Shown piece after piece: positions 4,514-41,938 of a stretch of DNA of 41,938 bases (position 1 is the stretch's first letter; each line of letters opens with the position of its first letter). The stretch covers positions 10,327 through 52,264 of the forward strand of contig MFJM01000006.1 in NCBI GenBank assembly GCA_001779205.1. Reading direction: 5' to 3'. The DNA comes from Candidatus Gottesmanbacteria bacterium RIFCSPHIGHO2_02_FULL_39_14. Its GTDB lineage: Bacteria > Patescibacteriota > Microgenomatia > 2-02-FULL-39-11. The position numbers and the translations under genes are program-made. The notes under the pieces were generated by a model. The model saw only the letters and a program-made list of their open reading frames with translations, was not told the origin of the DNA and did no database searches.

Positions 4514-4840
4514 TTAGGGTCCCGGGATGGTGAAGATGGTAAGGGGCACACCAGTATAGAATTCAATTAACCTAAAAATGAGTACGGCCACAGCCATGAG
4601 AGCAATACCCATAACAGCATAGGTCATGGTTTGTTTGGCACTGGTTGCCGCCTTGGGATCACCTCCGGCTGTCAGGTAACGAAAACCGCCAACAACAAGC
4701 ATGACAAAAAGAGCAAGGAGACCGAGACTGATGATAACTGTCAAAATTTGTCTATAAATTCCTTCCAGACATTTGAAGGTAGGAACATCTACATCGCCGA
4801 TGGTTCTGATGCATTCAACTCCAGCCCATTCTTTATACAT
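4514..4840 (-). CDS. VirB2/TrbC-like pilin
   Basis: GGFRYLTAGGDPK...AKQTMTYAVMG between two hydrophobic helices. Confidence 0.8.
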   Translation of the reverse strand: MYKEWAGVECIRTIGDVDVPTFKCLEGIYRQILTVIISLGLLALFVMLVVGGFRYLTAGGDPKAATSAKQTMTYAVMGIALMAVAVLIFRLIEFYTGVPLTIFTIPGP

Positions 4841-4856
4841 GAGGGATACAGGCGCT

Positions 4857-5243
4857 TTATACTCCTGACGGGATTACTAAGTCAAAGATATTGTCGATAC
4901 CGAAGAATTTACCGACGATGATCATTAAAGCCCAGGCAGCAAAAACAATAATCAGACCGATGATAGCAGCCTGAATTCTTTTTTGGGCCGACTCAACAGC
5001 ACTTTTGTCACCACCTGAAGTTATCCATTGAAAACCACCGATAAGGAGATAAATAAAGGCGGCTAAAGTAGCTATGACTAAGATGGCACCGATAAGACCG
5101 CTAATTAACTTTCCAAGATTGGTTACTCTAAGATTGGGTGGGGTAGGGATGGTAAAAGTAATGCCGTTGGCAAGGACCGGTGAGTTAAAACTTAAAAATA
5201 CAAAGGGAGTAAATAAAGCAGTTAATTTTTTAAATATAGCCAT
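4857..5243 (-). CDS. VirB2/TrbC-like pilin with signal peptide
   Basis: GGFQWITSGGDKSAVESAQKRIQAAIIGLIIV. Confidence 0.8.
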   Translation of the reverse strand: MAIFKKLTALFTPFVFLSFNSPVLANGITFTIPTPPNLRVTNLGKLISGLIGAILVIATLAAFIYLLIGGFQWITSGGDKSAVESAQKRIQAAIIGLIIVFAAWALMIIVGKFFGIDNIFDLVIPSGV

Positions 5244-5744: not shown

Positions 5745-5745
5745 G

Positions 5746-5817
5746 TGCCAGGGGAGAGGATCGAACTCTCGGCCGCCACGTTATGAATGTGGTGCTCTAC
5801 CACTGAGCTACCCTGGC
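5746..5817 (-). tRNA. tRNA with CAT anticodon (elongator Met more likely than Ile2); CCA not encoded
   Basis: GCCAGGG/CCCTGGC acceptor stem, TAGCTCAGTGGTAGAGC D-arm, TTCATAA loop, GAGAG-TTCGATC-CTCTC T-arm. Confidence 0.92.
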
Positions 5818-5884
5818 AAGCTTTTTGATTTTAACATAACTCAAGAACAGCCACAACGGAAGCTATATTTGATATAATTTATAG

Positions 5885-6217
5885 ATGATGATTGATCTAT
5901 TTAAAAAAAGATGCGTTCCCTGCGAAGGCGGAATGCCACCTGTAACTCCCGAGAAAGTTAAGGAATTACTTTCTCAAGTACCCCAGTGGAGAATGGAAGA
6001 GGGGAAAGTGGTAAGGCGGTTTAAATTCAAGAATTTCAAAGAAGCAATAAATTTTGTTAACAAGGTAGCTGATTTAGCTGAAGAGGAAGATCATCATCCC
6101 AATATTTCAATTTACGGCTGGAACAAGGTGAAATTGACTTTTTTCACTCATGCCATTAAAGGACTATCAGAAAACGACTTCATCATGGCCGCTAAGGTTA
6201 ATCAGATAACCTTGTAA
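5885..6217 (+). CDS. phhB: Pterin-4a-carbinolamine dehydratase
   Basis: CVPCEGG, F.FKNF.EAI.FVNKVA.LAEEEDHHP and THAI.GLSENDFIMAAK motifs. Confidence 0.92.
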   Translation: MMIDLFKKRCVPCEGGMPPVTPEKVKELLSQVPQWRMEEGKVVRRFKFKNFKEAINFVNKVADLAEEEDHHPNISIYGWNKVKLTFFTHAIKGLSENDFIMAAKVNQITL

Positions 6218-6253
6218 GCGAAGCTAATTTCAGTTATAATTACTTCTTGTCAC

Positions 6254-6326
6254 CGCGGAGTAGTGTACAGTTGCACAGGAGGCTCATAATCTCCTAGGCT
6301 AGGTGCGACTCCTAGCTCCGCAACCA
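6254..6326 (+). tRNA. Initiator-type tRNA-fMet (CAT), atypical
   Basis: CGCGGAG/CTCCGCA acceptor with C1:A72 mismatch, CTCATAA loop and encoded ACCA end. Confidence 0.88.
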
Positions 6327-6372: not shown

Positions 6373-6452
6373 CCACCCTGGCCAGGCTGATATGAAGCAC
6401 GCAAGTGCTGAATATAATAGCCTGGCATCACCTTTTGGGATATCATGGTAGT

Positions 6453-6728
6453 ATGTTCCACTATCTTTATATTCTCCAAAGTATTAAAGACAAGAAATTT
6501 TATACCGGAATTACCATTGATTTAAAACAAAGGTTAAAGGAGCATAATTCCGGTGAGAATACCTCGACATCTTATCGTCGACCATTCAAACTAATTTATT
6601 ATGAAGCCTATCTTCTCAAAAAAGACGCAGAAGCACGAGAATGGTATTTGAAGACGAGTATGGGAAAAAGAGTAATGAAGAAACAATTAAGGTATTACTT
6701 AGAATCAATTACGACAATTAAGATATGA
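6453..6728 (+). CDS. Small GIY-YIG nuclease
   Basis: YLYILQS..DKKFYTGIT.DLKQRLKEHNSG...T..RRPFKLIYYEAY....A.ARE..LK. ATG 6453 preferred as start. Confidence 0.9.
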   Translation: MFHYLYILQSIKDKKFYTGITIDLKQRLKEHNSGENTSTSYRRPFKLIYYEAYLLKKDAEAREWYLKTSMGKRVMKKQLRYYLESITTIKI

Positions 6729-10126: not shown

Positions 10127-10372
10127 ATGTGGTTTGTCTATATACTGCTGTGCAAGGATAGGAGCTTATATACGGGTGTTTCCAACAATCCACAAAAACG
10201 ATTTTCAGATCATCAAACCGGTAAAGGCAGTAAGTATACAAGATCATTTAAAGCAAAAAGTATTGTCCATCTTGAAAAGTACATGACCAAATCAGAAGCG
10301 CTAAAAAGAGAAAGACTGATAAAAAGTTGGAGCCGAGAAAAGAAAATCAGAATATTAAATCTAAAAATCTGA
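10127..10372 (+). CDS. Small GIY-YIG nuclease (UPF0213/YhbQ-like)
   Basis: WFVYILLCKDRSLYTGVSNNPQKRF.DH..GKGSKYTR...ALKRE..IK.WSREKK. Confidence 0.9.
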   Translation: MWFVYILLCKDRSLYTGVSNNPQKRFSDHQTGKGSKYTRSFKAKSIVHLEKYMTKSEALKRERLIKSWSREKKIRILNLKI

Positions 10373-11539: not shown

Positions 11540-12349
11540 ATGTTGCCGGCTTTTTTAATCACTTTCAGGGAAGTAATTGAGGCTTCGTTAATAGTGGCTA
11601 CAATTTTGGGTATTCTGGTGAAATTAAAGCAAAAGAAAGGGGTAAAATCAGTCTGGCTGGCAACGCTAGCGGGAGGGGGAGTGAGCATTATTCTTCTGGC
11701 GATTGGCAGTCTGGTAGGAGTTAAAGTCCAAGAGATTTACAGTGGGAAAACGGAGGAATTGATTGAGGGTATCATGATGGTGACGTCGGCCTTTTTTATT
11801 ACCTGGGCAGTATTTTTCCTTCATAATTACTTCTGCAGATATAAAACCAGATTGTTGCAGAAGATTAATTCTTCGGTTGAAAGTGAAGAGCAGAAGGGTT
11901 TGTTTTGGCTGACTTTTACAGCGGTTTTTCGGGAGGGGATTGAGGTTGTCCTATTCTTGTCGACAATTTATTTATCCTCCAATCCACAGCGTATTTTCAG
12001 CGGTTTTGTGTTAGGTGCAGCGGGTGCTTTGATGGTATCTTTTGGTCTATTTACGGCAACTTTGAGGTTGCCGATTTTTTATGCTTTTAGAATAACAAGC
12101 CTGCTTCTTATCCTTTTTGCCGCAGGATTATTAGCACGGGGTGTTGCCGAGTTTGCCGAGTTTGGATTATTACCGGTAATTGCTGAAACGACACTATCGT
12201 TTATACCGGCAAAAGCAACATTTTCCGGAGACATGATAAAGTCTGTATTCGGGTTAACACAGAAAATGGATACAATTCAATTGTCTATCTATGGGGTTTA
12301 TGTCACTTTAATGAGCTGGCGTGTTTTTGTGAGAAAGGCGGGGAGGTAG
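11540..12349 (+). CDS. FTR1/EfeU-family iron permease
   Basis: Two RExxE motifs (FREVIEA, FREGIEV) in a 7-TM protein. Confidence 0.9.
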   Translation: MLPAFLITFREVIEASLIVATILGILVKLKQKKGVKSVWLATLAGGGVSIILLAIGSLVGVKVQEIYSGKTEELIEGIMMVTSAFFITWAVFFLHNYFCRYKTRLLQKINSSVESEEQKGLFWLTFTAVFREGIEVVLFLSTIYLSSNPQRIFSGFVLGAAGALMVSFGLFTATLRLPIFYAFRITSLLLILFAAGLLARGVAEFAEFGLLPVIAETTLSFIPAKATFSGDMIKSVFGLTQKMDTIQLSIYGVYVTLMSWRVFVRKAGR

Positions 12350-12378
12350 TGGTAAACTTCTTATAAAGGAGATAAAAA

Positions 12379-13164
12379 TTGAAAATAATTCCATTAGGCA
12401 GCAACGGCTTTTTTCCCAGTTATAACAGGCAGACAGCATGCTACGCAATTCATTACAAGAGTATTTTAATTGTTCTAGATGCAGGAAGCGGACTTTTCCG
12501 ATTTGCCGAAAAAGAAGGAAAAGTTTTGTTACGAGGAGTTGATGAAATTCATATTTTTTTATCGCATTATCATTTGGATCATACCTTCGGATTTTATGCA
12601 GCCTTTGAACTCTTTGAGAAAAAAAGGGTAACAGTATTTGCCAAAGCAGGCAGACAAGTTTTTTCGGAATTTGTCGCGATGGAACATTTTCCGATTGATT
12701 ATGAGAAGAAGCATAAAAATTTCAGTTGGAAAACTGTAACTGAAGAAACATACCGTTTAGAAGGTTATAAAGCAAAAGTCCGTAAGCAGAATCATCGGGG
12801 TGAAGTAAGCTTAGGATTCAGAATGGAATTCTCAAATGGTAAAAGTATGACTTATATTACAGACGGAGAACCGACTTGGGAGAGCGTAGAATTTGTCAGG
12901 GGAGTTGATTTATTACTGCATGAGCATGAACCATCTGATGAAAAGGAGGCAAAACATCTCAAATTGGAAGATCAGATTTCCGACGGACATGTGACGACCG
13001 AAGGGGCTGGTTTGATTGCCAGAGAAGCCGGAGTGAAGAAACTGGCGTTGGTTCATCACAATCCATTTCTTAATGAGGCGAGCTTAATAAAAGAATTAAA
13101 AAAAGCAAAAGCGATTTTTAAAGAAAGTTATTTAGCGATGGATATGGAAGAGGTTGAGTTTTAG
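12379..13164 (+). CDS. Metallo-beta-lactamase-fold hydrolase, RNase Z/BN-like
   Basis: LGSNG, DAGSG, SHYHLDH, TD, HE, GH and LVHH motifs. Confidence 0.85.
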   Translation: MKIIPLGSNGFFPSYNRQTACYAIHYKSILIVLDAGSGLFRFAEKEGKVLLRGVDEIHIFLSHYHLDHTFGFYAAFELFEKKRVTVFAKAGRQVFSEFVAMEHFPIDYEKKHKNFSWKTVTEETYRLEGYKAKVRKQNHRGEVSLGFRMEFSNGKSMTYITDGEPTWESVEFVRGVDLLLHEHEPSDEKEAKHLKLEDQISDGHVTTEGAGLIAREAGVKKLALVHHNPFLNEASLIKELKKAKAIFKESYLAMDMEEVEF

Positions 13165-13174
13165 ATTTTAGAAT

Positions 13175-13206
13175 TTGACAATACAATTGTATTATTGTAT
13201 TATGAT
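13175..13206 (+). promoter_or_regulatory. TA promoter with palindromic operator
   Basis: TTGACA-N17-TATTAT with the palindrome aatacaattgtatt (13180-13193) in the spacer. Confidence 0.6.
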
Positions 13207-13212
13207 ACTCAA

Positions 13213-13464
13213 ATGAATTGGATTACTACGAATATCAGATTTCCTGAAGATATTTATATGGAATTAAAGATGGAAGCCGCACGTAAGCGCCGAAGTATTG
13301 CTGATATTGTGAGAGAAAGCGTAGCTAAAAGAAAAAATATTATGGGAATAACTAATGTAGAAAAATTTTTAAAAAAAGCCGATAAAATAGCAAGAGAAAT
13401 CAGCAGACAAAATAAAGGTAAAAGCTTATCTAAGGCTCTAATTGAGATGAGATACGAACAATGA
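13213..13464 (+). CDS. Ribbon-helix-helix antitoxin (VapB-like)
   Basis: TTNIRFPEDIY.ELK.EA....RSIADIVRESV; ATGA overlap with the PIN gene. Confidence 0.8.
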   Translation: MNWITTNIRFPEDIYMELKMEAARKRRSIADIVRESVAKRKNIMGITNVEKFLKKADKIAREISRQNKGKSLSKALIEMRYEQ

Positions 13465-13886
13465 TTGTTGTAGATGCTTCAGTAGCAATTAAGTGGATCG
13501 AGAAAGAAGAGGATAGTGAAAAAGCTGTTTTATTACAAAAATCTCATTTGTTAAAGCAAAACGAGATTATTGTTCCCCAGTTAATTTATTTTGAAATTGC
13601 GAATACATTATCCACGAAATCTAAAGTTGAAGAAAAGTATATAGAGTTGGGAATAAACATAGTTTATAACACTGATTTGAAAATTGAACAGTTAGAGAAA
13701 GTTGATCTTTTAAAAGCGTCAAATCTAGCAAAAAAGTATAAAACTTCAGTTTACGATATGATTTATGCTGTTGTGGCAAAAAAATACGATACTATACTTA
13801 TCACTACAGATGAGAAATTTATTCAGAAAACAAAATTTTCTTATGTTAAATTATTAAGTGAATATACTGCCGGCACAAAAACTTGA
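13461..13886 (+). CDS. vapC: PIN-domain toxin (VapC family)
   Basis: VVDASVAIKW...E...YD..Y...A......LITTD. Confidence 0.9.
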   Translation: MIVVDASVAIKWIEKEEDSEKAVLLQKSHLLKQNEIIVPQLIYFEIANTLSTKSKVEEKYIELGINIVYNTDLKIEQLEKVDLLKASNLAKKYKTSVYDMIYAVVAKKYDTILITTDEKFIQKTKFSYVKLLSEYTAGTKT

Positions 13887-13917
13887 CAGATATGGTAAGA
13901 TAAGAGGAAATTGATAA

Positions 13918-14162
13918 AGGCGATGATGGCGTAAGGATGGGACGCCGGAGCTGACCCTAATAAGGTACGGAGGCGAAACCGTAAAAGACAGTAACATGTG
14001 TCGCGAAAGCGGAGCATGTCATGAATGAGGTTAACTCATTTCGGATATGTGTCCCCGCGAGGGGACTTTTTAATGGGTTAACGAAATAAGGTGGCACAGC
14101 GAAAGTAATTTCGCCCTTGAATTCCCAGAATATTATTTTCGGGAAAAGGAGGGCGTTTTTTT
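13918..14162 (+). promoter_or_regulatory. Trp-specific T-box riboswitch leader
   Basis: Antiterminator AAGG-TGGCACA-GCGAAA...TTTCGC-CCTT at 14088-14118. Competing terminator at 14112-14162. GA-motif Stem I with TGG at 13938-13940. TTGACA at 13883. Confidence 0.9.
14112..14162 (+). terminator. T-box terminator that also sequesters the trpE SD
   Basis: cgccctt..ttccc...gggaa..gagggcg followed by T7 immediately before ATG 14163. Confidence 0.85.
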
Positions 14163-15533
14163 ATGGAAAATATTTTTCAAAATATAAAGCTAGGCTCCTA
14201 TCAAGAGAAGGAAGTGGATTTATCCATTTCCGCTTTCGAAGTATTTAAGCGGCTTTATCCTTATTCGAAAAATATATTTTTGTTGGAATCATTAGGAGAA
14301 GAGGGCAAATACAACCGCTTCTCTTATGTAGGTTATGAACCGGAATGCGTAATTTCAGGTTTAAATGGAGAACTGATTGTTAATAACAGACTATTTAAGA
14401 GCGCAAATCCTTTTGAAAATTTAAAGATTTTTTCCAGATTTAGTAGCGCAGGCCGCGATTTCTGTGGAGGCTTGGTCGGCTATTTTTCTTATGAAGCGGC
14501 TGCCTTTTTTGAGCCTGGTTTTCCGCCAGCTAACAGAGCGGAAAAGCATGAATTTCCGGATTTTCAGTTCGGATTATATTTTGATGGATTGAAGTTCGAT
14601 AAGAGGGGGAAGAGATGTACTTACTTTCATTACGGGAATTCCAGATTAGACCAAATAATGAAAATAATAAATAAAACAAACGGAAATTTGGGACGATTTT
14701 CATATAAAACGATAAAAAATCCGGATGAGAAGGAACACCGATTTAAAGTAGAACATGCCTTGGAAGAAATTAAGAAAGGGAATATTTTTCAAGTGGTTCT
14801 ATCAGAGAGAACTGATTATCAAATCGATGGTGATAACAGGAGAATTTATGCAGTATTACGGCAGGTGAACCCTTCGCCATATATGATCTATCAGAAATTT
14901 GATATGAGGGAGATTATTTCGGCAAGTCCGGAACTACTTATTAGAGTCAAAGGAAGAAAGATTGAACATTTCGGAACACTAGCCGGGACCATAAAAAGGG
15001 GGAAAGACCAGGAAGAAGATGAAAGGTTAAGAGAAAGACTCATTGGCGATGAAAAGGAATTGGCCGAACATTTCATGCTAGTTGATTTAGCCAGAAATGA
15101 TGTCGGTAAGGTGGCCCGCTTCGGGACAATCACGGTAGACAAACTTTCGACAGTCAAGAAATTTTCCAAGGTGCAACATTTATACAGCGAGATAAGAGGA
15201 GAGCTACAAGGGCGGCGGAATTGTTTTGATGCTATTGCTGCCTGTTTTCCGGCGGGGACTTTGACTGGAGCGCCAAAAGTTGAGGCAATGAAGATAATCA
15301 GCAAGCTTGAAGAGATGCGCCGCGGGCCTTACGGAGGAGTAGCTGGATATTTTTCTTTTAACGGAGAGGTGATGCTGGCAATAATTATAAGATCGCTGAT
15401 GATTTGCCGAAATTATGCCTATACGCAAACTGGTAGCGGAATTGTGGTTGATTCTGTTCCAGATCGCGAATTTCAGGAGATAGTCAATAAACAAAATGGA
15501 ATGGATGAGACATTAAGGAGGGCTTCCTTATGA
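14163..15533 (+). CDS. trpE: Anthranilate synthase component I
   Basis: LLES, NPSPYM, SASPE, AGT..RG, EH.MLVDLARND and FPAGTLTGAPK motifs. Confidence 0.95.
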   Translation: MENIFQNIKLGSYQEKEVDLSISAFEVFKRLYPYSKNIFLLESLGEEGKYNRFSYVGYEPECVISGLNGELIVNNRLFKSANPFENLKIFSRFSSAGRDFCGGLVGYFSYEAAAFFEPGFPPANRAEKHEFPDFQFGLYFDGLKFDKRGKRCTYFHYGNSRLDQIMKIINKTNGNLGRFSYKTIKNPDEKEHRFKVEHALEEIKKGNIFQVVLSERTDYQIDGDNRRIYAVLRQVNPSPYMIYQKFDMREIISASPELLIRVKGRKIEHFGTLAGTIKRGKDQEEDERLRERLIGDEKELAEHFMLVDLARNDVGKVARFGTITVDKLSTVKKFSKVQHLYSEIRGELQGRRNCFDAIAACFPAGTLTGAPKVEAMKIISKLEEMRRGPYGGVAGYFSFNGEVMLAIIIRSLMICRNYAYTQTGSGIVVDSVPDREFQEIVNKQNGMDETLRRASL

Positions 15534-16105
15534 AAACATTGATAATCAATAATTACGATTCTTTCACTTATAACCTCTATCAGTATTTAGGGGAACTCGG
15601 CGGCAATCCGCAAGTGTTCCGCAATGATGAGATAACTTACACAGAGATAGAAAAGAAAAAATACAGCCATATCGTAATTTCTCCGGGGCCGGGAGATCCA
15701 TCCGATAAGCATTATTTCGGCGTCTGCCGGGAAGTGATATTACGCCCTGATAAAAATATTCCAATATTGGGAGTGTGTCTGGGACATCAGGGAATTATCC
15801 ATTATTACGGGGGCAGGATTGTTAGGGCCGGAAAGATATTACACGGAAAGAAAAGCAAAATTACTCATAACGGGGACGGAATTTTTAAGGAAGTTAAAAG
15901 CCCCCTATTGGGCATGCGCTACCATTCGCTTGTTGGTGAGAAAGAAACGATACCTGATGTTTTGGAAATTACCGCAGAAACGGATGATGGTGTTGTGATG
16001 GGAGTGGCACATAAACAAATACCAATTTTTGGAATTCAGTTTCATCCGGAGTCGGTGGGGACGGAAGACGGGAAAAAAATATTAAAGAATTTTTTAGAGT
16101 TTTGA
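15530..16105 (+). CDS. trpG: Anthranilate synthase component II (glutamine amidotransferase)
   Basis: NYDSFTYNL, SPGPG, GVCLGHQ, RYHSL and QFHPES motifs. Confidence 0.95.
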   Translation: MKTLIINNYDSFTYNLYQYLGELGGNPQVFRNDEITYTEIEKKKYSHIVISPGPGDPSDKHYFGVCREVILRPDKNIPILGVCLGHQGIIHYYGGRIVRAGKILHGKKSKITHNGDGIFKEVKSPLLGMRYHSLVGEKETIPDVLEITAETDDGVVMGVAHKQIPIFGIQFHPESVGTEDGKKILKNFLEF

Positions 16106-16138
16106 ACGTATAGTCCCGAATTAATCGGGATCACGTTC
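16104..16138. repeat. Intergenic hairpin (REP-like) between trpG and trpD
   Basis: gaacgt..tcccga-attaa-tcggga..acgttc. Confidence 0.6.
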
Positions 16139-16146
16139 TAAAAAAC

Positions 16147-17184
16147 ATGGAAGCACAAGAAATTTTAGAAAAATTAATAAACAGAACAGATTTAACAAAA
16201 CTTCAAAGCACGATACTTGCCGAAATAATTTTCTCCGAGGACGTACAGGCGAGTATAAAAGCGGCACTGTTGACTGCTTTAAGGATGAAAGGGGAGTCTG
16301 TGTCTGAAATTCTGGGATTTATTGAAATCATCAGAAAAGCAATGGTGAAAGTGAAGATAGATGATTTAGCGATTGATACCTGCGGCAACGGTGGAGATAA
16401 CCAGAATACTTTTAATATTTCAACGGCAGCGGCGATTGTGGCAGCAGCCTGCGGGGTGAAAGTGGCCAAACACGGCAACCGCAACATTTCGTCAAAAAGC
16501 GGAAGTGCTGATGTTTTGGAAGCAATGGGAGCAAGAGTTGATTTGACGGCAAAAGAGGTGGAAGACAGCCTTAATTTCTCCAATTTCACTTTTATGTTTG
16601 TGCCTAATTTCCATCCGATTTTCAAAAATATCGGACTTTTGAGGCGTGAGCTTAGAATAAAAACAATTTTCAATTTGCTCGGGCCGCTGGTTAATCCGGC
16701 AGGAGTGAAGCGGCAGATTATCGGCAGCGGAAGCAGGGAGGCGGCGGAAATATTAAGTAAGGTCGTGCAAAGACTTGATAATGAGCATATTCTAGTAGTT
16801 CATTCTTTTGAGGGAATGGATGAGATTAGCATATATGAGCCGACACAAGTATTTGAGATTAGAGGAAATAGAATTAAAAAATTTGTCATAAAACCAGAGG
16901 AATTCGGTTTGAGAGGAAAGGATGCAAACAATATAAGAGTCAATTCCATTGAGGAGAGTAAAGTTAAATTAACAGAGATACTTGAGGGGAGTTTTGGCGA
17001 TGCGAGAAAAATTGTTCTATTTAATTCCGCGGCTGCACTTTATGTTGGAGGACGATGTCGAAGTATTGCCGAAGGAATTAAATTTGCCGAGAAAGCAATA
17101 GACGAAGGACTAGCATATGCAGAACTTAATAAATTCATAGAGTTTAGTAAAAAAGTGAGGATGCAAAATGATCAACATATTTAA
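16147..17184 (+). CDS. trpD: Anthranilate phosphoribosyltransferase
   Basis: DTCGNGGD..TFNIST, KHGNR..SSKSGSADVLE, FNLLGPL.NP and G.DE motifs. Confidence 0.95.
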   Translation: MEAQEILEKLINRTDLTKLQSTILAEIIFSEDVQASIKAALLTALRMKGESVSEILGFIEIIRKAMVKVKIDDLAIDTCGNGGDNQNTFNISTAAAIVAAACGVKVAKHGNRNISSKSGSADVLEAMGARVDLTAKEVEDSLNFSNFTFMFVPNFHPIFKNIGLLRRELRIKTIFNLLGPLVNPAGVKRQIIGSGSREAAEILSKVVQRLDNEHILVVHSFEGMDEISIYEPTQVFEIRGNRIKKFVIKPEEFGLRGKDANNIRVNSIEESKVKLTEILEGSFGDARKIVLFNSAAALYVGGRCRSIAEGIKFAEKAIDEGLAYAELNKFIEFSKKVRMQNDQHI

Positions 17185-17839
17185 AAAAATATTAGAGGTG
17201 AGGAAATTCATTCTTATGGCTGAGATAAAAATAAAATCACCATCGGAAGGAGCATTGGGCGGGATGGAAGAGATGGAGGAAATTGCTAAAGAATATACGG
17301 ATGGGGGAGCGGATATGATTTCGGCAGTGACAGAACAAACGCATTTCGGAGGAGATTTGGGGATGATAGATAGAATAAAAAGAGTGAGCAGTTTGCCGAT
17401 TCTTTGCAAAGATTTTATTTCGGATGAAAGAGAGCTAGTTGATGTTAAAGAGCATGGTGCTGATGCTGTTTTATTATTGGTAATGTATGTATCTAAGGAG
17501 AAGTTAGTAGTGCTTTTTGACAGTGCGTTGAAAATGGGACTTGTTCCAATAGTAGAAGTTGATAACGAAGTTGACCTTAACATGGCAGTAAGAGAAAAAT
17601 TTCCGGTGGTGGCGGTTAATGCCAGGAATTTAAGGGATTTGTCGGTTGACAGAAAAAAGGCAATTTCATTGATTAGAAAAATTCCTCAAAAAGTAATTGC
17701 CCTGGCGTTTTCCGGAGTAAGAGATAAGGAAGATGTGAAAAATTATTTAAAAGCCGGAGCAAAGGGAGTGCTTATCGGGACAGTGCTAATGCGGGCAAAG
17801 GATAAGGTTTCGATGTTAAAGGAGTTGAGGGGTGTATGA
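17168..17839 (+). CDS. trpC: Indole-3-glycerol-phosphate synthase
   Basis: AEIK.KSPS.G, TE..HFGG, PIL.KDFI, GADAVLL, VEV and N.RNL motifs. Confidence 0.93.
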   Translation: MINIFKKILEVRKFILMAEIKIKSPSEGALGGMEEMEEIAKEYTDGGADMISAVTEQTHFGGDLGMIDRIKRVSSLPILCKDFISDERELVDVKEHGADAVLLLVMYVSKEKLVVLFDSALKMGLVPIVEVDNEVDLNMAVREKFPVVAVNARNLRDLSVDRKKAISLIRKIPQKVIALAFSGVRDKEDVKNYLKAGAKGVLIGTVLMRAKDKVSMLKELRGV

Positions 17840-18453
17840 AGACATTGATTAAGATTTGCGGAATAAAGGATTTGGCGGAGGCCGGAATGGCAATTAAGAA
17901 TGGGGCTGATATTCTGGGATTTAATCTTGTTAAGACTTCAAAGCGATACATTGAGCCAAAAGTGGCTAAAAATATAATCAAAAAAATAGACAGGAGGAAA
18001 GTAGAGATTGCGGGTGTGTTTCAGAATGAAGAGAAGGAGAAAGACATTGAAATAACTGATTTTTTAAAATTGGATTTAGTTCAGTTACATGGAGAAGAAG
18101 AGCCAGAAATATACAGGAGGTTAAAGACAAAAATAATTAAAGTTTTTCCGGTGGAAAGAGACTTTGATGTGGATAAACTTTTATTAGAAATGAAACAAAG
18201 TAAAGCAGATTTTTATCTTTTAGACAGGAGAAATCAGGGGAGCGGGGAAAGAATTGATGTGGAAAAGGCGAGAAGAGTTGCAGAGAAATTTTCATTATTT
18301 TTGGCCGGAGGATTAAATCCCGAAAATGTCAAAAAGGTTGTCGAGAAAGTTAAGCCGTATGCAGTTGATGTGGCTTCGGGGGTGGAAAGCGGCGGGCGAA
18401 AAGACATGCTAAAAATTCAAAAATTTATCAGAATGGTCAGATCAATATCATGA
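17836..18453 (+). CDS. trpF: Phosphoribosylanthranilate isomerase
   Basis: KICGI, VQLHG.E, LAGGLNPENV and DVASGVE motifs. Confidence 0.95.
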   Translation: MKTLIKICGIKDLAEAGMAIKNGADILGFNLVKTSKRYIEPKVAKNIIKKIDRRKVEIAGVFQNEEKEKDIEITDFLKLDLVQLHGEEEPEIYRRLKTKIIKVFPVERDFDVDKLLLEMKQSKADFYLLDRRNQGSGERIDVEKARRVAEKFSLFLAGGLNPENVKKVVEKVKPYAVDVASGVESGGRKDMLKIQKFIRMVRSIS

Positions 18454-19631
18454 GAAAGATCGATACAAAAGTAAAAAACGGTTATTTCGGTAAATTCGGA
18501 GGGCAGTTTGTGACAGAATTGCTTTATTCGGCATTGGAAGAGCTGGGAGAAGTATTTACGAAAATTAAGGAAGACCGTGAATTTCTTAAAACTTATATAA
18601 GCTTAGTGGAGGATTACGCGGGCAGGCCGACGCCTTTGTATTCAGCGGAAAATATTTCCAGGATAGTCGGCTCGCGAGTTTATTTTAAACGGGAAGATTT
18701 GCTAAATGGAGGGTCCCACAAACTTAATAATTCATTAGGCCAGGCATTAATGGTGAAATTTTTAGGAAAGAAGGAAATTGTTACTGAAACGGCGGCAGGG
18801 ATGAACGGAGTGGCGACAGCAATGGCGGCAACTGTGGCGGGATTAAAATGTAAAGTTTTTATGGGAGTCAAGGATATTGAGAGACAGAGATTGAATGCTG
18901 ATAAAATAAAACTTTTAGGTGCGGAAGTAGTTCCGGTCGAAAGAGGTTTTGGAGTCTTGAAAGATGCTGTGTCGGAAGCGCTTGTTTATTGGATTAGGAA
19001 TCTGACAACATGCCATTACCTGATCGGATCGACGGTCGGTCCACATCCATTTCCTTCAATTGTTGCTTTTTTCCAAAAGATAATCGGTGATGAGGCAAGG
19101 CGGCAGATTTTTGAGAAAGAAGGAAAGTTGCCTAGCCATATTATAGCCTGCGGTTCAGGCGGGAGTAATGCTATGGGAATTTTTCAAGCATTTATCGATG
19201 ATCCGGTAGAATTGATTTTTGTTGAAGGGGCGGAGTCGGCGGCATTAACAAAGGGTACGGTCGGAATATTTCAGGGAACAAAAACTTATGTTTTACAGGA
19301 TGAGTTTGGGATGGACAGAAAGACGGAGAGCAGGGCAGCGGGACTTAATTATCCGGGAAGAAGTCCGCAGATTGCCTATCTTTATTCTATCAGAAGAATA
19401 AAAGCGGAAACTGCAACTGACCAGGAGGTAATTGAGGCATTTTATAAAACGACAAAACTAGAAGGACTAATGCCGGCTTTTGAAACCTGTCATGCAATGG
19501 CATATTTATTCAGAAGTAAGGGAAAATTCCGAAAAAAAGATATTGTGCTTTTGAATTTTTCAGGAAGAGGAGATAAGGATATGGCAGCTGCGCTGCAAGG
19601 CAGAAAGTTCATAAAGTTTATAAAGTTATGA
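18450..19631 (+). CDS. trpB: Tryptophan synthase beta chain (divergent)
   Basis: GYFG.FGG, GRPTPL, KREDL...SHK.NN, GPHPFP, GGSNA and SGRGDKD motifs. Confidence 0.92.
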   Translation: MRKIDTKVKNGYFGKFGGQFVTELLYSALEELGEVFTKIKEDREFLKTYISLVEDYAGRPTPLYSAENISRIVGSRVYFKREDLLNGGSHKLNNSLGQALMVKFLGKKEIVTETAAGMNGVATAMAATVAGLKCKVFMGVKDIERQRLNADKIKLLGAEVVPVERGFGVLKDAVSEALVYWIRNLTTCHYLIGSTVGPHPFPSIVAFFQKIIGDEARRQIFEKEGKLPSHIIACGSGGSNAMGIFQAFIDDPVELIFVEGAESAALTKGTVGIFQGTKTYVLQDEFGMDRKTESRAAGLNYPGRSPQIAYLYSIRRIKAETATDQEVIEAFYKTTKLEGLMPAFETCHAMAYLFRSKGKFRKKDIVLLNFSGRGDKDMAAALQGRKFIKFIKL

Positions 19632-20398
19632 ATATTAAGAAAATATTAATGACGCATTTTTATTACGGGGATGTAAGTCCGGAATTTTCGGAAGATTTGG
19701 CTATGAGACTTATTAGTTCCGGGTCGGATATTCTGGAAATAGGAATTCCATATAGCGACCCGGTTTGCGACGGACCTGTTTTTCAAAAGTCATGCAGGCA
19801 GGCACTTGAGAATGGTATTACTCCTATGACAGTTTTAGCAGGAATAAAAAAAATCAGAGAAAAAACAATTAAACCAATATACTTAACAAGCTACTTTGGT
19901 CCTGTTTTCAAGTTGGGGGTGGAGAGATTTTTGAAAATGGCAGATGATACGGGAGTAAATGGACTAATAATTCCTGATTTGCCATTGGAGGAGCAAGAGA
20001 ATTTTTCAGATATTTTTAACAAATACAATTTGTCTATAATCCAATTTGCAACTGTTTATTCAGACCAAGGGCGGCTGGAGAAAATAATTAATAAATCCAA
20101 TGATTTTATTTACGGCATTTCTCATTCAGGGGTAACAGGGGATAGAGGCAATGAAAGGGAGATTCAAGATTTGATAGTTAAAATTAAAAACTTAACCGAT
20201 AAAAAAATATATTGCGGATTCGGGATCAAAACGGCAATGGATGCTAAGAAGATTATTGATTTAGGCGCAGACGGAGTAATTGTAGGAAGTGCGATTGCCG
20301 AGATTTATCAAAATAGTAAAGACCCGCAGAAAAGTTTAGAAGAAATTGAAGATTTAGTTAGAAATATTCAAAAAAAAGTTAAACTGATTATAATGTAA
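19628..20398 (+). CDS. trpA: Tryptophan synthase alpha chain
   Basis: EIGIPYSDPVCDGP, PDLP.EE, GVTG, GFGI and ADGVIVGSA motifs. Confidence 0.95.
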   Translation: MNIKKILMTHFYYGDVSPEFSEDLAMRLISSGSDILEIGIPYSDPVCDGPVFQKSCRQALENGITPMTVLAGIKKIREKTIKPIYLTSYFGPVFKLGVERFLKMADDTGVNGLIIPDLPLEEQENFSDIFNKYNLSIIQFATVYSDQGRLEKIINKSNDFIYGISHSGVTGDRGNEREIQDLIVKIKNLTDKKIYCGFGIKTAMDAKKIIDLGADGVIVGSAIAEIYQNSKDPQKSLEEIEDLVRNIQKKVKLIIM

Positions 20399-20412
20399 GA
20401 AAGGAATAAATT

Positions 20413-21927
20413 ATGGATGAAGCAGTTAAAAAATATCTTAATGAGTTAAAAGAGCTGGGGATAGAATACCAGATTTTGGAGCATCCCCAGCTTATTTCCG
20501 TGGAGAAAGTCCAGGAATATCTGGGGTACAGAATGGATGATGCCGGAGCGACACTACTGATGAAAACGGATGATAAGTTTGTAGCCATTATAAAGAGGGG
20601 CGATACTAAACTGGATAATGAAAAAATAAAGAAATATTTGGGAGTAAAAAACTTGAGGATGGCAACGGAGGAGGAATTCGAGAAGATTACACATGTACCG
20701 AGCGGAGCAGCAACGGTTTTTATTAAGGGAGTACCAATATATCTTGATAAAAAGATATTGGAGAAAGAGTATATCAATGCAGGAAGCGGGAGTTTACTGA
20801 TTACACTGCGGTATAAAACAGACGATTTTAAAAAAATCCCAGGGATTAAAATCGTTGATTTTACAAAAATTGAAACTGATAAAGAAGATTTAGGGAAAGT
20901 TATTAAAGGAGGAAAAAGAATTCTTTCCGGTATTACACCGTCGGGTGATGGAAGTCTTCACATAGGTAATTATTTGGGGGCGGTGAGGCAGTTTAAAGAA
21001 CTGGCGAAGAATAATGAGTGTTTCTTGTTTGTGGCTGATATTCATGCGTTAACGACAGTTCAGAGTAGAGAAGAATTACAGAAGAATATTGAGATTTTGA
21101 TTATAAATGAATTGGCTCTGTTGGGTGAATTGTCAAATATCACTTTTTTCAGACAATCGGATGTTCCTATGCATACGGAATTACAGTCAATACTCAATAA
21201 TGTGACACCATTGGGATTGATAAAAAGGGCTCATGCTTATAAGGATAAACTGCAGAAGGGGTTAACCGAGGAAGAGATGAACATGGGACTTTTTTGTTAT
21301 CCGATTCTGATGGCGGCGGATATATTAATTTATAAACCGGATATTGTTCCTGTGGGACAGGATCAGAAGCAGCATTTGGAGATAACCAGGGATATTGCCG
21401 AAAATTTTAATAAAACCTACAGAAAGAAAGTTTTTCCATTACCAGAATCACATATTCCCAAAGAAGTAGCAGTTATTATGGGAACAGATGGGAAGAGGAA
21501 GATGAGCAAATCGTTGGGGAATATTATCAGTATATTTGATGACGAAGCGATTATTAAAAAACAGGTAATGTCGACTTATACCGATCCGACCAGAAAACAC
21601 GCAATAGATCCTGGGCATATTGAGGGGAACATGGTATTTACATATTTGGACTTCTTCGGAAAAAAGAAAAGAGTTGAAGAGTTGAAAAGTTTATATCGAG
21701 TGGGGAAAGTGGGGGATGTAGAGGTAAAAAATTTTCTGTTAAAGACATTGATTAAATATTTTGCTCCGGCACGAGAGAGATACCAAGAGTTAAAATCCAA
21801 TCCGCAAAAGGTGAGAAAAATCCTCATGGAGGGGTCGGAGAGAGCCAGGGAAGTGGCAAGCACAACAATGGTGGAAGTCAGGGAAGCTGTGGGGTTGACT
21901 AATAAATACTCTTTCTTCGAATATTAA
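20413..21927 (+). CDS. trpS: Tryptophanyl-tRNA synthetase with N-terminal YbaK/ProX-like domain
   Basis: SGITPSG..HIGNY.GA, YPILMAADIL, VPVG.DQ.QH.E and KMSKS motifs. The first ~150 aa look YbaK-like. Confidence 0.93.
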   Translation: MDEAVKKYLNELKELGIEYQILEHPQLISVEKVQEYLGYRMDDAGATLLMKTDDKFVAIIKRGDTKLDNEKIKKYLGVKNLRMATEEEFEKITHVPSGAATVFIKGVPIYLDKKILEKEYINAGSGSLLITLRYKTDDFKKIPGIKIVDFTKIETDKEDLGKVIKGGKRILSGITPSGDGSLHIGNYLGAVRQFKELAKNNECFLFVADIHALTTVQSREELQKNIEILIINELALLGELSNITFFRQSDVPMHTELQSILNNVTPLGLIKRAHAYKDKLQKGLTEEEMNMGLFCYPILMAADILIYKPDIVPVGQDQKQHLEITRDIAENFNKTYRKKVFPLPESHIPKEVAVIMGTDGKRKMSKSLGNIISIFDDEAIIKKQVMSTYTDPTRKHAIDPGHIEGNMVFTYLDFFGKKKRVEELKSLYRVGKVGDVEVKNFLLKTLIKYFAPARERYQELKSNPQKVRKILMEGSERAREVASTTMVEVREAVGLTNKYSFFEY

Positions 21928-21972
21928 TTTAGCCAGTCGTCGTATTTGAGTTTTTACGATTGGAGGTAAATA

Positions 21973-22004
21973 TTGACAGATTACAGTATGTATGGTAGTA
22001 TGAT
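21973..22004 (+). promoter_or_regulatory. TA promoter
   Basis: TTGACA-N17-TAGTAT with an extended TG. Confidence 0.55.
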
Positions 22005-22010
22005 TAGAGT

Positions 22011-22301
22011 ATGGATACAAATATTGTCAGTACAACTGAATTGCAGAGAAATATTAAATCTGTTTTGGACAAACTCAACGATAATAATGAACCTCTGATT
22101 GTAGTGCGGGATAGTAAACCTAAGGCTGTTATGATGCCATATAGTGAATATAAAAGGTTGTCTAGCTTGGAAAAAGAAGTAATTAGGCTGCAGATGGAAA
22201 AAGTATGGGAAAAAATGAGGATTATAAATAAAAATGTATCAGATAAAGAACTTAATAAAGATATTGAAGAAGCGATAAAGTATGCCAAGAATGGTCGTTG
22301 A
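22011..22301 (+). CDS. Phd/YefM-family antitoxin
   Basis: VSTTELQRN...VLD.L.....PLIV.RDSKPKAVMM...EY. Confidence 0.88.
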   Translation: MDTNIVSTTELQRNIKSVLDKLNDNNEPLIVVRDSKPKAVMMPYSEYKRLSSLEKEVIRLQMEKVWEKMRIINKNVSDKELNKDIEEAIKYAKNGR

Positions 22302-22707
22302 CACGAATGTTTTGATACGAGCACTTCTTAAACCCGATAGCAGTGACGGATTAGTAATAAGGAGAGCAGTTGAGGGTAAACTAGATTTATTTTTCAGTCT
22401 AAAACTAATTACAGAATTAAAAAGGACGCTTACTTATAAAAGGATAAGAAAGCGGGCGGTTACTAATGATGATGTTAAGATATTTCTGAAAACTCTTCTA
22501 ACATTTGGTAATATTACTTCCATAACAGAAAAAATTAATTTATGCCGGGATCCTGATGATAACGAACTGTTATCAATCGCAGTTTCAATTTATAAAGATA
22601 GTCCTGTATATTTAGTTACTGCTGATAAAGATTTACTGGTATTAAAGGGGAAAATAGAAAAAGTAATGATTGTTACACCCCAGGAATTTTTGAGGCTGAG
22701 GAAGTAA
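22282..22707 (+). CDS. PIN-domain toxin (PIN_3/TIGR00305-like)
   Basis: VVDTNVLIRAL, CRDPDDN..L..A, LVTADKDLL and TPQEFL motifs. Confidence 0.9.
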   Translation: MPRMVVDTNVLIRALLKPDSSDGLVIRRAVEGKLDLFFSLKLITELKRTLTYKRIRKRAVTNDDVKIFLKTLLTFGNITSITEKINLCRDPDDNELLSIAVSIYKDSPVYLVTADKDLLVLKGKIEKVMIVTPQEFLRLRK

Positions 22708-22754
22708 TAATGTTTGGTTGTTCGGGAGGTGTAGATGAAGTATAATTTAAGCTC

Positions 22755-23093
22755 ATGAAAAAGGATGAAATCAGTTTGTCTGACTTCCAGAAGATGGATT
22801 TAAGAGTAGGGAAAGTGATTAGTGCTTCCGCGATCGAAGGATCAATTAACCTTCTTCGACTTAAAGTGGACTTGGGCTACGATTACGGAGTTAGGCAAAT
22901 TATTTCGGGTATTGCCCGATGGTACAAACCTGAAAAATTACGGGGCAAAAAATTCATATTTTTGGCAAATTTGGAGGGGAAGAAACTGATGGGAAATAAG
23001 AGTGCGGGAATGATTTTATGCGCTGATGAGAACCACTCTGCATTTATAATTCCCGTTGATAATAAAATTCCCGAAGGAACGTTAATCAGGTAA
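22755..23093 (+). CDS. Stand-alone OB-fold tRNA-binding protein (Trbp111/CsaA/MetRS C-terminal-like)
   Basis: DF.KMDLRVGKV, LL.L.VDLG, RQIISGI, NL..KKLMG..S.GMIL and P.GT.IR motifs. Confidence 0.9.
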   Translation: MKKDEISLSDFQKMDLRVGKVISASAIEGSINLLRLKVDLGYDYGVRQIISGIARWYKPEKLRGKKFIFLANLEGKKLMGNKSAGMILCADENHSAFIIPVDNKIPEGTLIR

Positions 23094-41543: not shown

Positions 41544-41938
41544 TGTCATCCTGAACGAAGTCAAGCTTAGCTTGATGAAGTGAAGGATCTCTGAACTTGT
41601 TTCAGATTTCATTTGATAGATTATTAAAATCAGGATTAATGGTTTTAATTAAAGCTATCTTTTTCTTTCTGGTCCAACCTTTGATTTTCTTTTCAAAAAC
41701 TATCGCTTCTTCTATATTTCTAAATTCAGTTAAATAGATTAATTTATTAAGATTATATTTTGAAGTAAAACCGGGAATTGATTTTAAACTATGCTCATTT
41801 ATTCTTCTTACTATATTATTGGTTACTCCTATATAAAGTTTATTGGATTTATTAGTCAGAATATAAACATAATAAGTCATTAATTAAAGTATCTCACATT
41901 CGTGAGAGATTCTTCCCCCGCTAAGCGGGGTCAGAATG
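41544..41938. mobile_element. Same palindromic element carrying a GIY-YIG gene between its arms
   Basis: Left arm at 41544-41591; right arm at 41906-41938, cut by the window end. Confidence 0.65.
41602..41880 (-). CDS. Small GIY-YIG nuclease
   Basis: YYVYILTN....LYIGVTNNI.RR..EH....GFT.KYN..KL.Y...AI..EK.IKGW.R.KK..LI...NP. Confidence 0.93.
   Translation of the reverse strand: MTYYVYILTNKSNKLYIGVTNNIVRRINEHSLKSIPGFTSKYNLNKLIYLTEFRNIEEAIVFEKKIKGWTRKKKIALIKTINPDFNNLSNEI

Follow-up and report, generated by a model that had tools for sequence, protein, structure and literature searches.

The trp operon of Escherichia coli is governed by a leader-peptide attenuator, trpL, and that of Bacillus subtilis by TRAP. 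Bacteria of the candidate phyla radiation (CPR), or Patescibacteria, are commonly portrayed as obligate symbionts that have no amino-acid synthesis of their own. We describe a tryptophan (Trp) locus in Candidatus Gottesmanbacteria bacterium RIFCSPHIGHO2_02_FULL_39_14, an ultra-small inhabitant of groundwater; the locus lies in a 41,938-nt stretch of contig MFJM01000006.1 (C6:10327-52264), which we call the window. The locus comprises the seven genes trpEGDCFBA, the gene trpS for tryptophanyl-tRNA synthetase (TrpRS) and, ahead of trpE, a T-box leader. We put at about 0.8 the probability that it is a genuine chromosomal operon, governed by the T-box, for making Trp from chorismate in a CPR bacterium of the Gottesmanbacteria family, and that the cell makes this chorismate itself. 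Enzyme activities, regulatory response and co-transcription of trpS are things we infer from sequence.

As in the operons of E. coli and B. subtilis, the same seven enzyme activities are encoded together, the enzymes are poor in Trp, and regulation by the status of Trp or tRNA-Trp is predicted. Unlike them, it has neither a leader peptide with Trp codons nor a TRAP site upstream of trpE; leader-peptide attenuation is predicted here on a separate shikimate operon, not on the trp operon.

The closest described systems are T-boxes of two kinds. TBDB notes a Trp T-box as the 5′ untranslated region of a tryptophan biosynthesis operon (PMC7778990). The Gottesmanbacteria locus resembles the T-box trp operons of Gram-positive bacteria (RF00230; PMC7778990) in its UGG specifier, its UGGN-type bulge, its mutually exclusive antiterminator and terminator, and its position before trpE...A. 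Unlike these, it has a leader scoring below the Rfam gathering score (49.5 against 93 bits), an ultrashort stem I with no distal platform, a terminator that would double as sequestrator of the Shine-Dalgarno (SD) sequence at the start codon, the sole TrpRS gene as its last gene, and a patescibacterial host. Translational T-boxes with an intermediate or ultrashort stem I precede ileS in actinobacteria (Sherwood et al. 2015, cited in PMC7583486). As in these, the specifier lies in a short, platform-less stem I, a conserved stem II/IIA-B region comes after it, and the SD sequence falls in the off-state helix (PMC7583486). Unlike the ileS T-boxes, the leader has a Trp specifier and heads an eight-gene biosynthetic operon rather than a single synthetase gene; its off-state helix is followed by a run of seven U (U7) as in an intrinsic terminator, and stem III of 10 out of 11 relatives encloses an extra hairpin. 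T-box control of trp genes and the ultrashort stem I were both previously known, and the locus is built from known parts. In a literature search whose coverage left out most subscription journals, we found nothing linking T-boxes to the CPR or Patescibacteria, nothing describing tryptophan synthesis in Gottesmanbacteria and nothing pertinent on their amino-acid synthesis in general or on shikimate and tryptophan in the CPR.

The operon

Eight open reading frames (ORFs) in the order trpE-G-D-C-F-B-A-trpS span 14163-21927, all on the + strand and with no in-frame stop. Neighbours overlap at five of the seven junctions, by 4 nt at E/G, C/F, F/B and B/A and by 17 nt at D/C, and are separated by 41 nt at G/D and 14 nt at A/S. 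This agrees with a first-pass annotation of the same DNA, which had described an intact and mostly overlapping trpEGDCFBA-trpS. Every one of the eight proteins exceeds the Pfam gathering score of its expected family, and curated NCBIfam cut-offs are reached by TrpD, TrpB, TrpA, TrpS and, with the trpG_papA subfamily model, TrpG. Motifs expected at active sites are retained in TrpE, G, D, C, B and S; their functional meaning is our assumption throughout.

The predicted pathway begins with trpE (14163-15533; 456 residues, none of them Trp), for anthranilate synthase component I, which matches PF00425 and PF04715 and has the motifs LLES at residue 40 and GAPK at 369. The glutamine amidotransferase component II is encoded by trpG (15530-16105; 191 residues; PF00117), with 200 bits to TIGR00566 (cut-off 121), GVCLG at residue 81 and HPE at 172. 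Anthranilate phosphoribosyltransferase follows as trpD (16147-17184; 345 residues; PF00591 and PF02885; TIGR01245 370.9 bits, cut-off 199), which retains its KHGN motif. Indole-3-glycerol-phosphate synthase, trpC (17168-17839; 223 residues), has a short N-terminus, aligns to positions 46-254 of the PF00218 profile and retains EIKIKSPS at residue 19; its start lies within the 17-nt overlap with trpD. Phosphoribosylanthranilate isomerase, trpF (17836-18453; 205 residues), matches PF00697. The last two steps belong to tryptophan synthase, whose beta subunit is the PALP enzyme trpB (18450-19631; 393 residues; TIGR00263 469.5 bits, cut-off 392) and whose alpha subunit is trpA (19628-20398; 256 residues; PF00290; TIGR00262 210.5 bits, cut-off 102). 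TrpB has the motifs GGSHKLNN and GSGGSNA in common with a Bathyarchaeia homologue at 56% identity; GGSHK we take to be the region of the pyridoxal-phosphate lysine.

Together the eight proteins contain one Trp in 2573 residues, TrpB W181 in the context LVYWIRN, just as the first-pass annotation had counted. The genomic background, taken from 1058 non-overlapping ORFs of at least 150 residues, is 4157 Trp in 372,861 residues (1.11%), from which 28.7 would be expected in the operon (binomial P(<=1) = 8.9e-12). No other of the 586 sets of eight consecutive ORFs in the genome is as poor in Trp. Avoidance by biosynthetic enzymes of their own product is a known bias, and relatives display it too: Trp is absent from TrpE in all 12 family members and in 11 of 18 other CPR sequences, against 11 of 60 sequences from a genome collection (59 non-CPR and one Patescibacteria record; mean 2.35 Trp), and among the 120 best TrpRS relatives listed, 92 have no Trp and 28 have one. 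On these counts Trp depletion is partly a general property of such enzymes, and it is extreme here.

The T-box leader

A Trp-specific T-box leader (13914-14162, + strand) is predicted from stem I to a terminator whose U-run reaches the trpE ATG. The Rfam model RF00230 matches at full length over 13914-14121 with 49.5 bits (E 5e-8 when the window is searched, 4e-10 for 351 nt); the leader is visible only in the E-value mode of Rfam and is missed at the gathering threshold. Rfam likewise detects the leader in 4 of 12 trpE loci of relatives at E <= 0.01, and the others were located through alignment. The region upstream of trpE was extracted from 12 family genomes and 11 leaders were aligned, G012 being excluded. 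In G012 (locus L018) a transposase-like ORF replaces the 5′ part of the leader including stem I, and what is left comprises stem II, the T-box sequence and the terminator, a natural 5′ truncation of the T-box switch.

The leader structure has 31 pairs in eight helices. Across the 11 leaders 96.4% of cells are paired and compensatory changes occur at 17 of the 31 pairs. Controls in which the 3′ partner was slid by 1-3 columns gave 28-38% pairing, and none of 500 shuffles matched the observed covariation. The structure model was drawn up from the same sequences that were scored, which makes the contrast with the slid control look rather too good but does not touch the compensatory changes.

Stem I (13919-13952, + strand; -9.5 kcal/mol) is ultrashort. 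It consists of a lower helix (13919-13921/13950-13952) and an upper helix of 5-6 bp (13927-13932/13942-13947) that closes a 9-nt loop, AAGGAUGGG, in which the specifier UGG (13938-13940) is followed by a purine. UGG plus purine stands in this loop in all 11 leaders, and all five upper-helix pairs scored covary (5/5). The Rfam alignment has 7 nt here against 71 in the model, and there is no long stem with a distal platform for the tRNA elbow. A stem I this short agrees with the ultrashort type that PMC7583486 reports from translational T-boxes.

The antiterminator (14088-14118, + strand; -8.1 kcal/mol) is formed by helices A1 (14088-14091/14115-14118) and A2 (14099-14103/14110-14114), the latter with four of five pairs covarying. 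Its 7-nt T-box bulge contains UGGC (14092-14095) in all 11 leaders. The tRNA-Trp(CCA) gene of this genome (C66:22098-22169) has G73 as discriminator, so the bulge would pair with the GCCA end of the tRNA; pairing of a UGGN bulge with discriminator and CCA end is the rule given by TBDB (PMC7778990).

The competing fold is a terminator/sequestrator hairpin (14112-14155, + strand) followed by the U7 run (14156-14162), which abuts the trpE ATG. The hairpin has a folding energy of -21.1 kcal/mol (z -4.1), equalled by none of 200 shuffles. Both folds use 14112-14118 and are therefore mutually exclusive. The SD sequence, AAGGAGGG (14146-14153), lies within the 3′ arm of the hairpin, and with the U7 run this gives an off state that would be able both to end transcription and to mask the ribosome-binding site. 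PMC7583486 describes the distal stem I platform as essential for transcriptional T-boxes and an ultrashort stem I as typical of translational ones. Since the leader has the one and lacks the other, we lean toward a translational or dual mode of control.

We propose that the switch would work as follows. The CCA anticodon of uncharged tRNA-Trp would pair with the UGG specifier in the loop of the ultrashort stem I, and its free GCCA end with the UGGC bulge; the bound tRNA would stabilise the weak antiterminator (-8 kcal/mol) over the stronger hairpin (-21 kcal/mol). Otherwise the hairpin would halt transcription at the U7 run and bury the ribosome-binding site. Trp starvation would raise the enzymes of Trp synthesis and the charging enzyme alike, and the near-absence of Trp codons (1/2573) would permit synthesis of the products while Trp-tRNA is scarce.

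Upstream of the leader lies a conserved promoter-like motif (13883-13901, + strand): TTGACA, 7 nt and TAAGAT, with TG two bases upstream as in the extended -10 type. By eye, most of the 11 leaders of relatives show the same TTGACA / TG-N-TA(T/A)GAT motif. A sigma-70 scan did not report 13883-13901, and the 7-nt spacing is unlike a standard -35/-10 pair; the motif may combine an extended -10 promoter and, upstream of it, a site resembling an operator.

In the relatives' leaders, the extra hairpin within stem III carries a U-run of its own. Between the T-box U-run and the trpE ATG, three relatives (G014, locus L015; G008, L020; G017, L023) have a conserved insert of ~130 nt, seemingly a long hairpin, that is absent from the window and may be a second regulatory RNA.

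trpS as the last gene

The TrpRS gene (20413-21927, + strand; 504 residues) matches PF04073 with 79.3 bits (gathering 25.5), PF00579 with 202 bits and TIGR00233 with 286 bits. A YbaK/ProX-type editing-like domain (residues 24-141, in the N-terminal part encoded by 20413-20910) precedes the class I catalytic domain (169-450), which has HIGN at 183 and KMSKS at 363. The assembly contains no second TrpRS gene, so that trpS is the sole copy. The gap of 14 nt after trpA holds no terminator-like site. In three genomes from other genera of the family, trpS again directly follows trpA (G011 and G016) or is parted from it by one membrane-protein gene (G013). Given the short gap, the missing terminator and the single gene copy, the T-box probably governs Trp synthesis and Trp charging together. 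The same pattern of a pathway with its cognate synthetase is seen in this genome in argFGH-argS and aro/phe-pheST units.

In sequence, the N-terminal domain of TrpRS is best matched in the PDB by a prolyl-tRNA synthetase, ProRS (5znj, E 1e-9), and by 3op6 (E 2e-6). K51 aligns with the Lys of the stretch TMIFKVDGE in the ProRS INS domain (5znj), which we take to be the catalytic Lys. The N-terminal 140 residues, with K51 and the PF04073 match, are thus like the ProRS INS domain and the free-standing YbaK/ProX deacylases; unlike in these, the editing-like domain is here fused to TrpRS, an enzyme for which we know of no editing activity. The fusion is common among relatives, occurring in ~100 of the 120 best listed, many of which add a C-terminal tRNA-binding domain; the TrpRS of G011 (a 337-aa match) is without the YbaK-type domain. 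A literature search for the TrpRS-YbaK fusion, with most subscription journals outside its coverage, returned work on eukaryotes only.

Downstream, a stand-alone tRNA-binding protein of the Trbp111/CsaA-like type (22755-23093, + strand; PF01588) is separated from trpS by two toxin-antitoxin genes of the Phd/YefM-PIN type (22011-22707). No such pair intervenes in G013 and G016, where trpS is directly followed by the tRNA-binding gene, and in many Microgenomates relatives the two are fused in a three-domain TrpRS (PF04073+PF00579+PF01588). Since relatives keep the tRNA-binding gene next to trpS or fused with it, the Phd/PIN pair seems to have been inserted into a unit of these two genes.

Distribution and origin of the genes

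At E <= 1e-30, 12 of the 20 other family genomes have TrpE, and 40 genomes drawn from 37 further families of the class yielded none. Chorismate synthase is present in 16 of the 20, of which 12 have TrpE and 4 do not; the remaining 4 lack both. Taken from these presences and absences, the distribution within the family is a nested pattern of loss. An even sample of 400 further genomes from the phylum includes 25 with trpB, and 18 of these, from 12 families, have TrpE as well (~4.5% of the sample). An unusually prototrophic lineage had been one of two alternatives in the first-pass annotation. Its TrpE and TrpB are indeed unusual in the phylum (18/400), but not unique, given the 12 of 20 family members with TrpE. 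A 2026 single-cell study gives a near-zero completeness of the Trp pathway in soil Patescibacteria.

Of 149 other genomes sampled from the phylum, 48 have T-box matches with E <= 1e-5, five of them above the Rfam threshold. A second CPR family (f60) has a T-box directly upstream of trpE in 3 of its 3 TrpE-bearing genomes.

For phylogeny, quick IQ-TREE searches were run for TrpE (90 rows) and for TrpB. The TrpE outgroup came from at least 80 loci listed from a genome collection, none from this family, a thin and arbitrary sample. Of these, 60 entered the tree; seven partial matches were excluded (L077, L082, L089, L100, L140, L143 and L147), as were 13 more to limit tree size (L097, L099, L104, L112, L116, L122, L124, L125, L126, L128, L131, L132 and L134). 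The 12 family sequences of TrpE form one clade (support 100), nested in a larger one whose 25 rows are all CPR (support 100, stem 0.87) and which includes six other families and a 'Patescibacteria group bacterium' record; six other CPR TrpEs are placed elsewhere in the tree.

TrpB behaves differently. After the Gottesmanbacteria tier its hits, at 55-57% identity, are from Bathyarchaeia, Hadarchaeales, Methanofastidiosia and Euryarchaeota, and 21 TrpBs of other CPR families have 40-48% identity to that of this family. In the tree, 14 Gottesmanbacteria-like rows and seven archaeal rows, the latter chosen as top hits, split from the other 50 rows with support 100, and 17 other-CPR TrpBs form a separate clade among those 50. 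An approximately unbiased (AU) test rejects all CPR TrpBs as one group (p 3.6e-7), and another rejects the family joined with the main CPR clade (p 4e-5), a group that was named after viewing the tree. TrpA has bacteria, and not archaea, as its next relatives.

With TrpE in a CPR-only clade and TrpB among archaeal sequences, the operon appears to be a mosaic. Our best reading of the trees is a long-established CPR operon of which a single gene, trpB, was probably exchanged with archaea at some time before the family radiated.

These data also bear on the least improbable of the alternatives, itself unlikely, in which the whole operon was acquired recently from a donor outside the CPR. Such a transfer would account for the patchy distribution (12/20 in the family, 0/40 in other families of the class) and for the archaeal affinity of TrpB with its rejected single CPR clade. 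It sits badly with TrpE, whose CPR-only clade takes in six families of other classes and whose best non-CPR identity is 40% among the matches listed, and with the bacterial relatives of TrpA. Nor does it suit the T-box before trpE in f60, or the leader and gene order retained across at least 11 genera of the family.

Precursor supply and other pathways

No shikimate or chorismate gene lies in the window, as had been noted in the first pass over the sequence, and chorismate or anthranilate from a host was then offered as one explanation. The genes are elsewhere in the genome. On contig C10, after thrS-infC-rplT, stand genes for 3-deoxy-D-arabino-heptulosonate 7-phosphate (DAHP) synthase, prephenate dehydratase, aroB, aroQ, aroA, aroK, aroE, aroC, an aminotransferase, pheS and pheT. 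An ORF of 85 codons within this operon (~5781-6035 of locus L007) looks by eye like an AroQ-type chorismate mutase. With a complete shikimate operon, chorismate supplied by a host is unnecessary.

Directly upstream of DAHP synthase (L007, contig C10, 3817-3945) is a 25-codon leader ORF, MTVQINSWLYFYFAPYFGVGLVLSK, followed by a GC-rich hairpin and a U7 run that abuts the DAHP synthase start codon. From its codons and position, MTVQINSWLYFYFAPYFGVGLVLSK looks like a candidate leader-peptide attenuator that would read Trp, Tyr and Phe codons for the shikimate/Phe/pheST operon. No T-box was found ahead of this operon.

A slightly less probable alternative than recent transfer is that the operon is real and merely finishes the pathway from imported chorismate, anthranilate or indole. 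Most Patescibacteria have no such pathway (trpB in 25 of 400 sampled genomes), and partial pathways of a salvage type do exist in the phylum, 7 of the 25 genomes with trpB being without TrpE. Here, however, all shikimate steps stand in one operon under predicted aromatic-codon attenuation, chorismate synthase accompanies TrpE in 12 of 12 TrpE-bearing family genomes, and trpE and trpG are intact and stand first behind the T-box. We therefore retain the reading in which the cell makes its own chorismate and is probably a tryptophan prototroph.

Further pathways support the view of an unusually prototrophic CPR lineage. The genome has glyA, glnA and a serA-serB fusion. Its his operon contains hisG, C, D, B, a HAD phosphatase gene, H, F, I and E; hisA was not recognised in it. 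A T-box candidate of 34 bits precedes argF-argG-argH, a cyclase-like gene and argS.

The arg and his operons and the serA-serB fusion lie on contigs C14, C43 and C44, and some features may be recorded beside them. An unusual tRNA-His-like gene ends 4 nt before hisG. A T-box candidate for the his operon, at 27 bits in one scan, was gone in another and is unconfirmed. The ArgRS of the arg operon is 917 aa long, with a long N-terminal extension. A T-box candidate of 47 bits precedes an unassigned 322-aa ORF and the serA-serB fusion.

Evidence against, and the possibility of decay

Several observations weigh against a T-box-governed operon that serves a prototroph. Three of the enzymes fall below the cut-offs of NCBIfam equivalog models: TrpE (TIGR01820 405.9 of 512 bits; 385 bits to TIGR00564, also below its own cut-off), TrpC (190 of 260 bits) and TrpF (NF002298, 166 of 215 bits). 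Their best NCBIfam matches are nevertheless the expected families, and with these scores we regard them as divergent members. TrpC misses ~35-45 N-terminal residues of the Pfam profile. The leader does not reach the gathering score of RF00230, and it is without the distal stem I platform that PMC7583486 calls necessary for transcriptional T-boxes. TrpE was missing from 8 of the 20 genomes of the family, among which two have a completeness rating of 100%, and from the genome of the same genus (85% complete); with TrpE lacking in such close kin, the operon is dispensable there.

The search for phosphoribosyl pyrophosphate (PRPP) synthetase is a further such point. TrpD and HisG need PRPP, and prs gave no match above cut-off in the 85.5%-complete assembly. 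Since prs is present in 20 of 20 other family genomes, we take the gene to lie in the unassembled part of this one. Of the precursor genes that the first-pass annotation had named, those for shikimate and for serine supply were thus found and prs was not.

These points bear most on the idea, less likely again than import, that the locus is a decaying relic or serves something other than Trp supply. It would be in keeping with the sub-cut-off scores of TrpE, TrpC and TrpF, the truncated N-terminus of TrpC and the loss of the operon in relatives. Decay is hard to reconcile with 7.7 kb free of stops and frameshifts, in which start/stop overlaps and catalytic-type motifs are kept. The short TrpC is shared with G013, the protein being 248 aa long in G016 and 298 aa in G011. 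The extreme avoidance of Trp codons and the covarying T-box would both need ongoing selection.

Genome identity and contig integrity

The genome is 1.44 Mb in 72 contigs, rated 85.5% complete and with an estimated 3.6% contamination, and no small-subunit (16S) rRNA gene was found in the assembly. Its identity was judged by protein relatives. Named TrpRS relatives at 72-85% identity are Ca. Gottesmanbacteria, the others being Microgenomates, Roizmanbacteria and 'Patescibacteria group'; named TrpB relatives at 60-77% are Ca. Gottesmanbacteria and one partial Roizmanbacteria sequence; the closest named TrpA relatives are Gottesmanbacteria. NCBI places Ca. Gottesmanbacteria in the Microgenomates/Patescibacteria group. 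The window also has CPR-typical type IV secretion system (T4SS) pilins, small GIY-YIG ORFs and an ATP-dependent DNA ligase.

By tblastn, the order metallo-beta-lactamase (MBL)-(toxin-antitoxin)-trpEGDCFBA-trpS-tRNA_bind-ftsH-exonuclease-GT1, the last two being a 5′-3′ exonuclease and a glycosyltransferase, is shared by G011, G013 and G016, which belong to three other genera of the same family. In G011 it sits on a contig of 1,118,283 nt that also bears a TrpB cluster named Ca. Gottesmanbacteria bacterium, and in G016 the small-ORF/PIN pair between the MBL gene and trpE is present as well. Logan contigs from other runs span 12338-14470 and 20201-22762 (X3) and 13064-14349 and 21273-22615 (X5), with 0 differences and even depth. 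Among the 20 runs found, none was listed as one of RNA. The tables of X3 and X4 are identical, possibly one data set, and since all runs are groundwater metagenomes of similar date, their independence is possibly incomplete. GC is 0.35-0.42 and GC skew positive throughout both junctions, and the window contains no N; a scaffold gap lies just ahead of its start. No misjoin is thus seen near 13.9 kb or near 22 kb, the two places where the first-pass annotation had seen a risk of chimerism, and family gene order and Gottesmanbacteria relatives speak against its other doubt, that the contig might not be from Patescibacteria.

That the trp genes are a misassembled or mis-binned fragment from another organism is very improbable: a 72-contig bin with some contamination, no 16S gene and a scaffold gap leaves room for it, but both flanks are kept in three other genera (in one of them within 1.12 Mb of contiguous sequence), both junctions are crossed without mismatch by contigs assembled from other runs, GC content and skew show no break, and the closest named relatives of TrpB, TrpA and TrpRS are Gottesmanbacteria.

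Other features of the window

The 41-nt spacer between trpG and trpD contains a hairpin with no U-run (16104-16138, + strand; -17.5 kcal/mol, z -4.9). It is one copy of a motif TCCCGA-N3-9-TCGGGA, of which the genome has 11 copies where ~0.8 would be expected, and which is seen again within T-box leaders of relatives. The hairpin may be an element like the repetitive extragenic palindromes (REP-like), or a processing or stability signal.

Away from the operon, T4SS-pilin genes stand side by side as a pair, two tRNA-Met genes are placed divergently, and GIY-YIG ORFs of small size occur three times (window 4514-5243, 5745-6326, 6405-6728, 10127-10372 and 41602-41880). A pterin-4a-carbinolamine dehydratase gene (5885-6217) is flanked by the two tRNA-Met genes.

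Significance

If the proposed reading is true, a family with genomes of 0.9-1.7 Mb keeps a complete and tightly regulated route from phosphoenolpyruvate and erythrose 4-phosphate to tryptophan, plus His, Arg and Ser genes, in a phylum commonly portrayed as dependent on others. The nested losses within the family offer a natural series in which to study the evolution of metabolic dependence. The locus would join the supply and the charging of one amino acid in a single regulon, and would be a case of replacement of trpB within an operon by an archaeal-type gene. It would also serve as the canonical target for a minimal class of Trp T-box found across the phylum.

More tentatively, and as a possibility that we think likelier to be wrong than right, the family may preserve an ancestral, regulated prototrophy of the CPR. 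The Trp, Arg and aromatic/Phe pathways would each have been kept in one transcription unit with the sole cognate synthetase (trpS, argS, pheST), with minimal T-boxes or aromatic leader peptides as their switches. The short-stem Trp T-boxes before orphan genes in many auxotrophic CPR genomes would be remnants of the leader of this operon, and the locus would become a reference case for decoding those orphan 'Trp-starvation' genes. The mosaic of CPR-type TrpE and archaeal-type TrpB belongs to this picture too.

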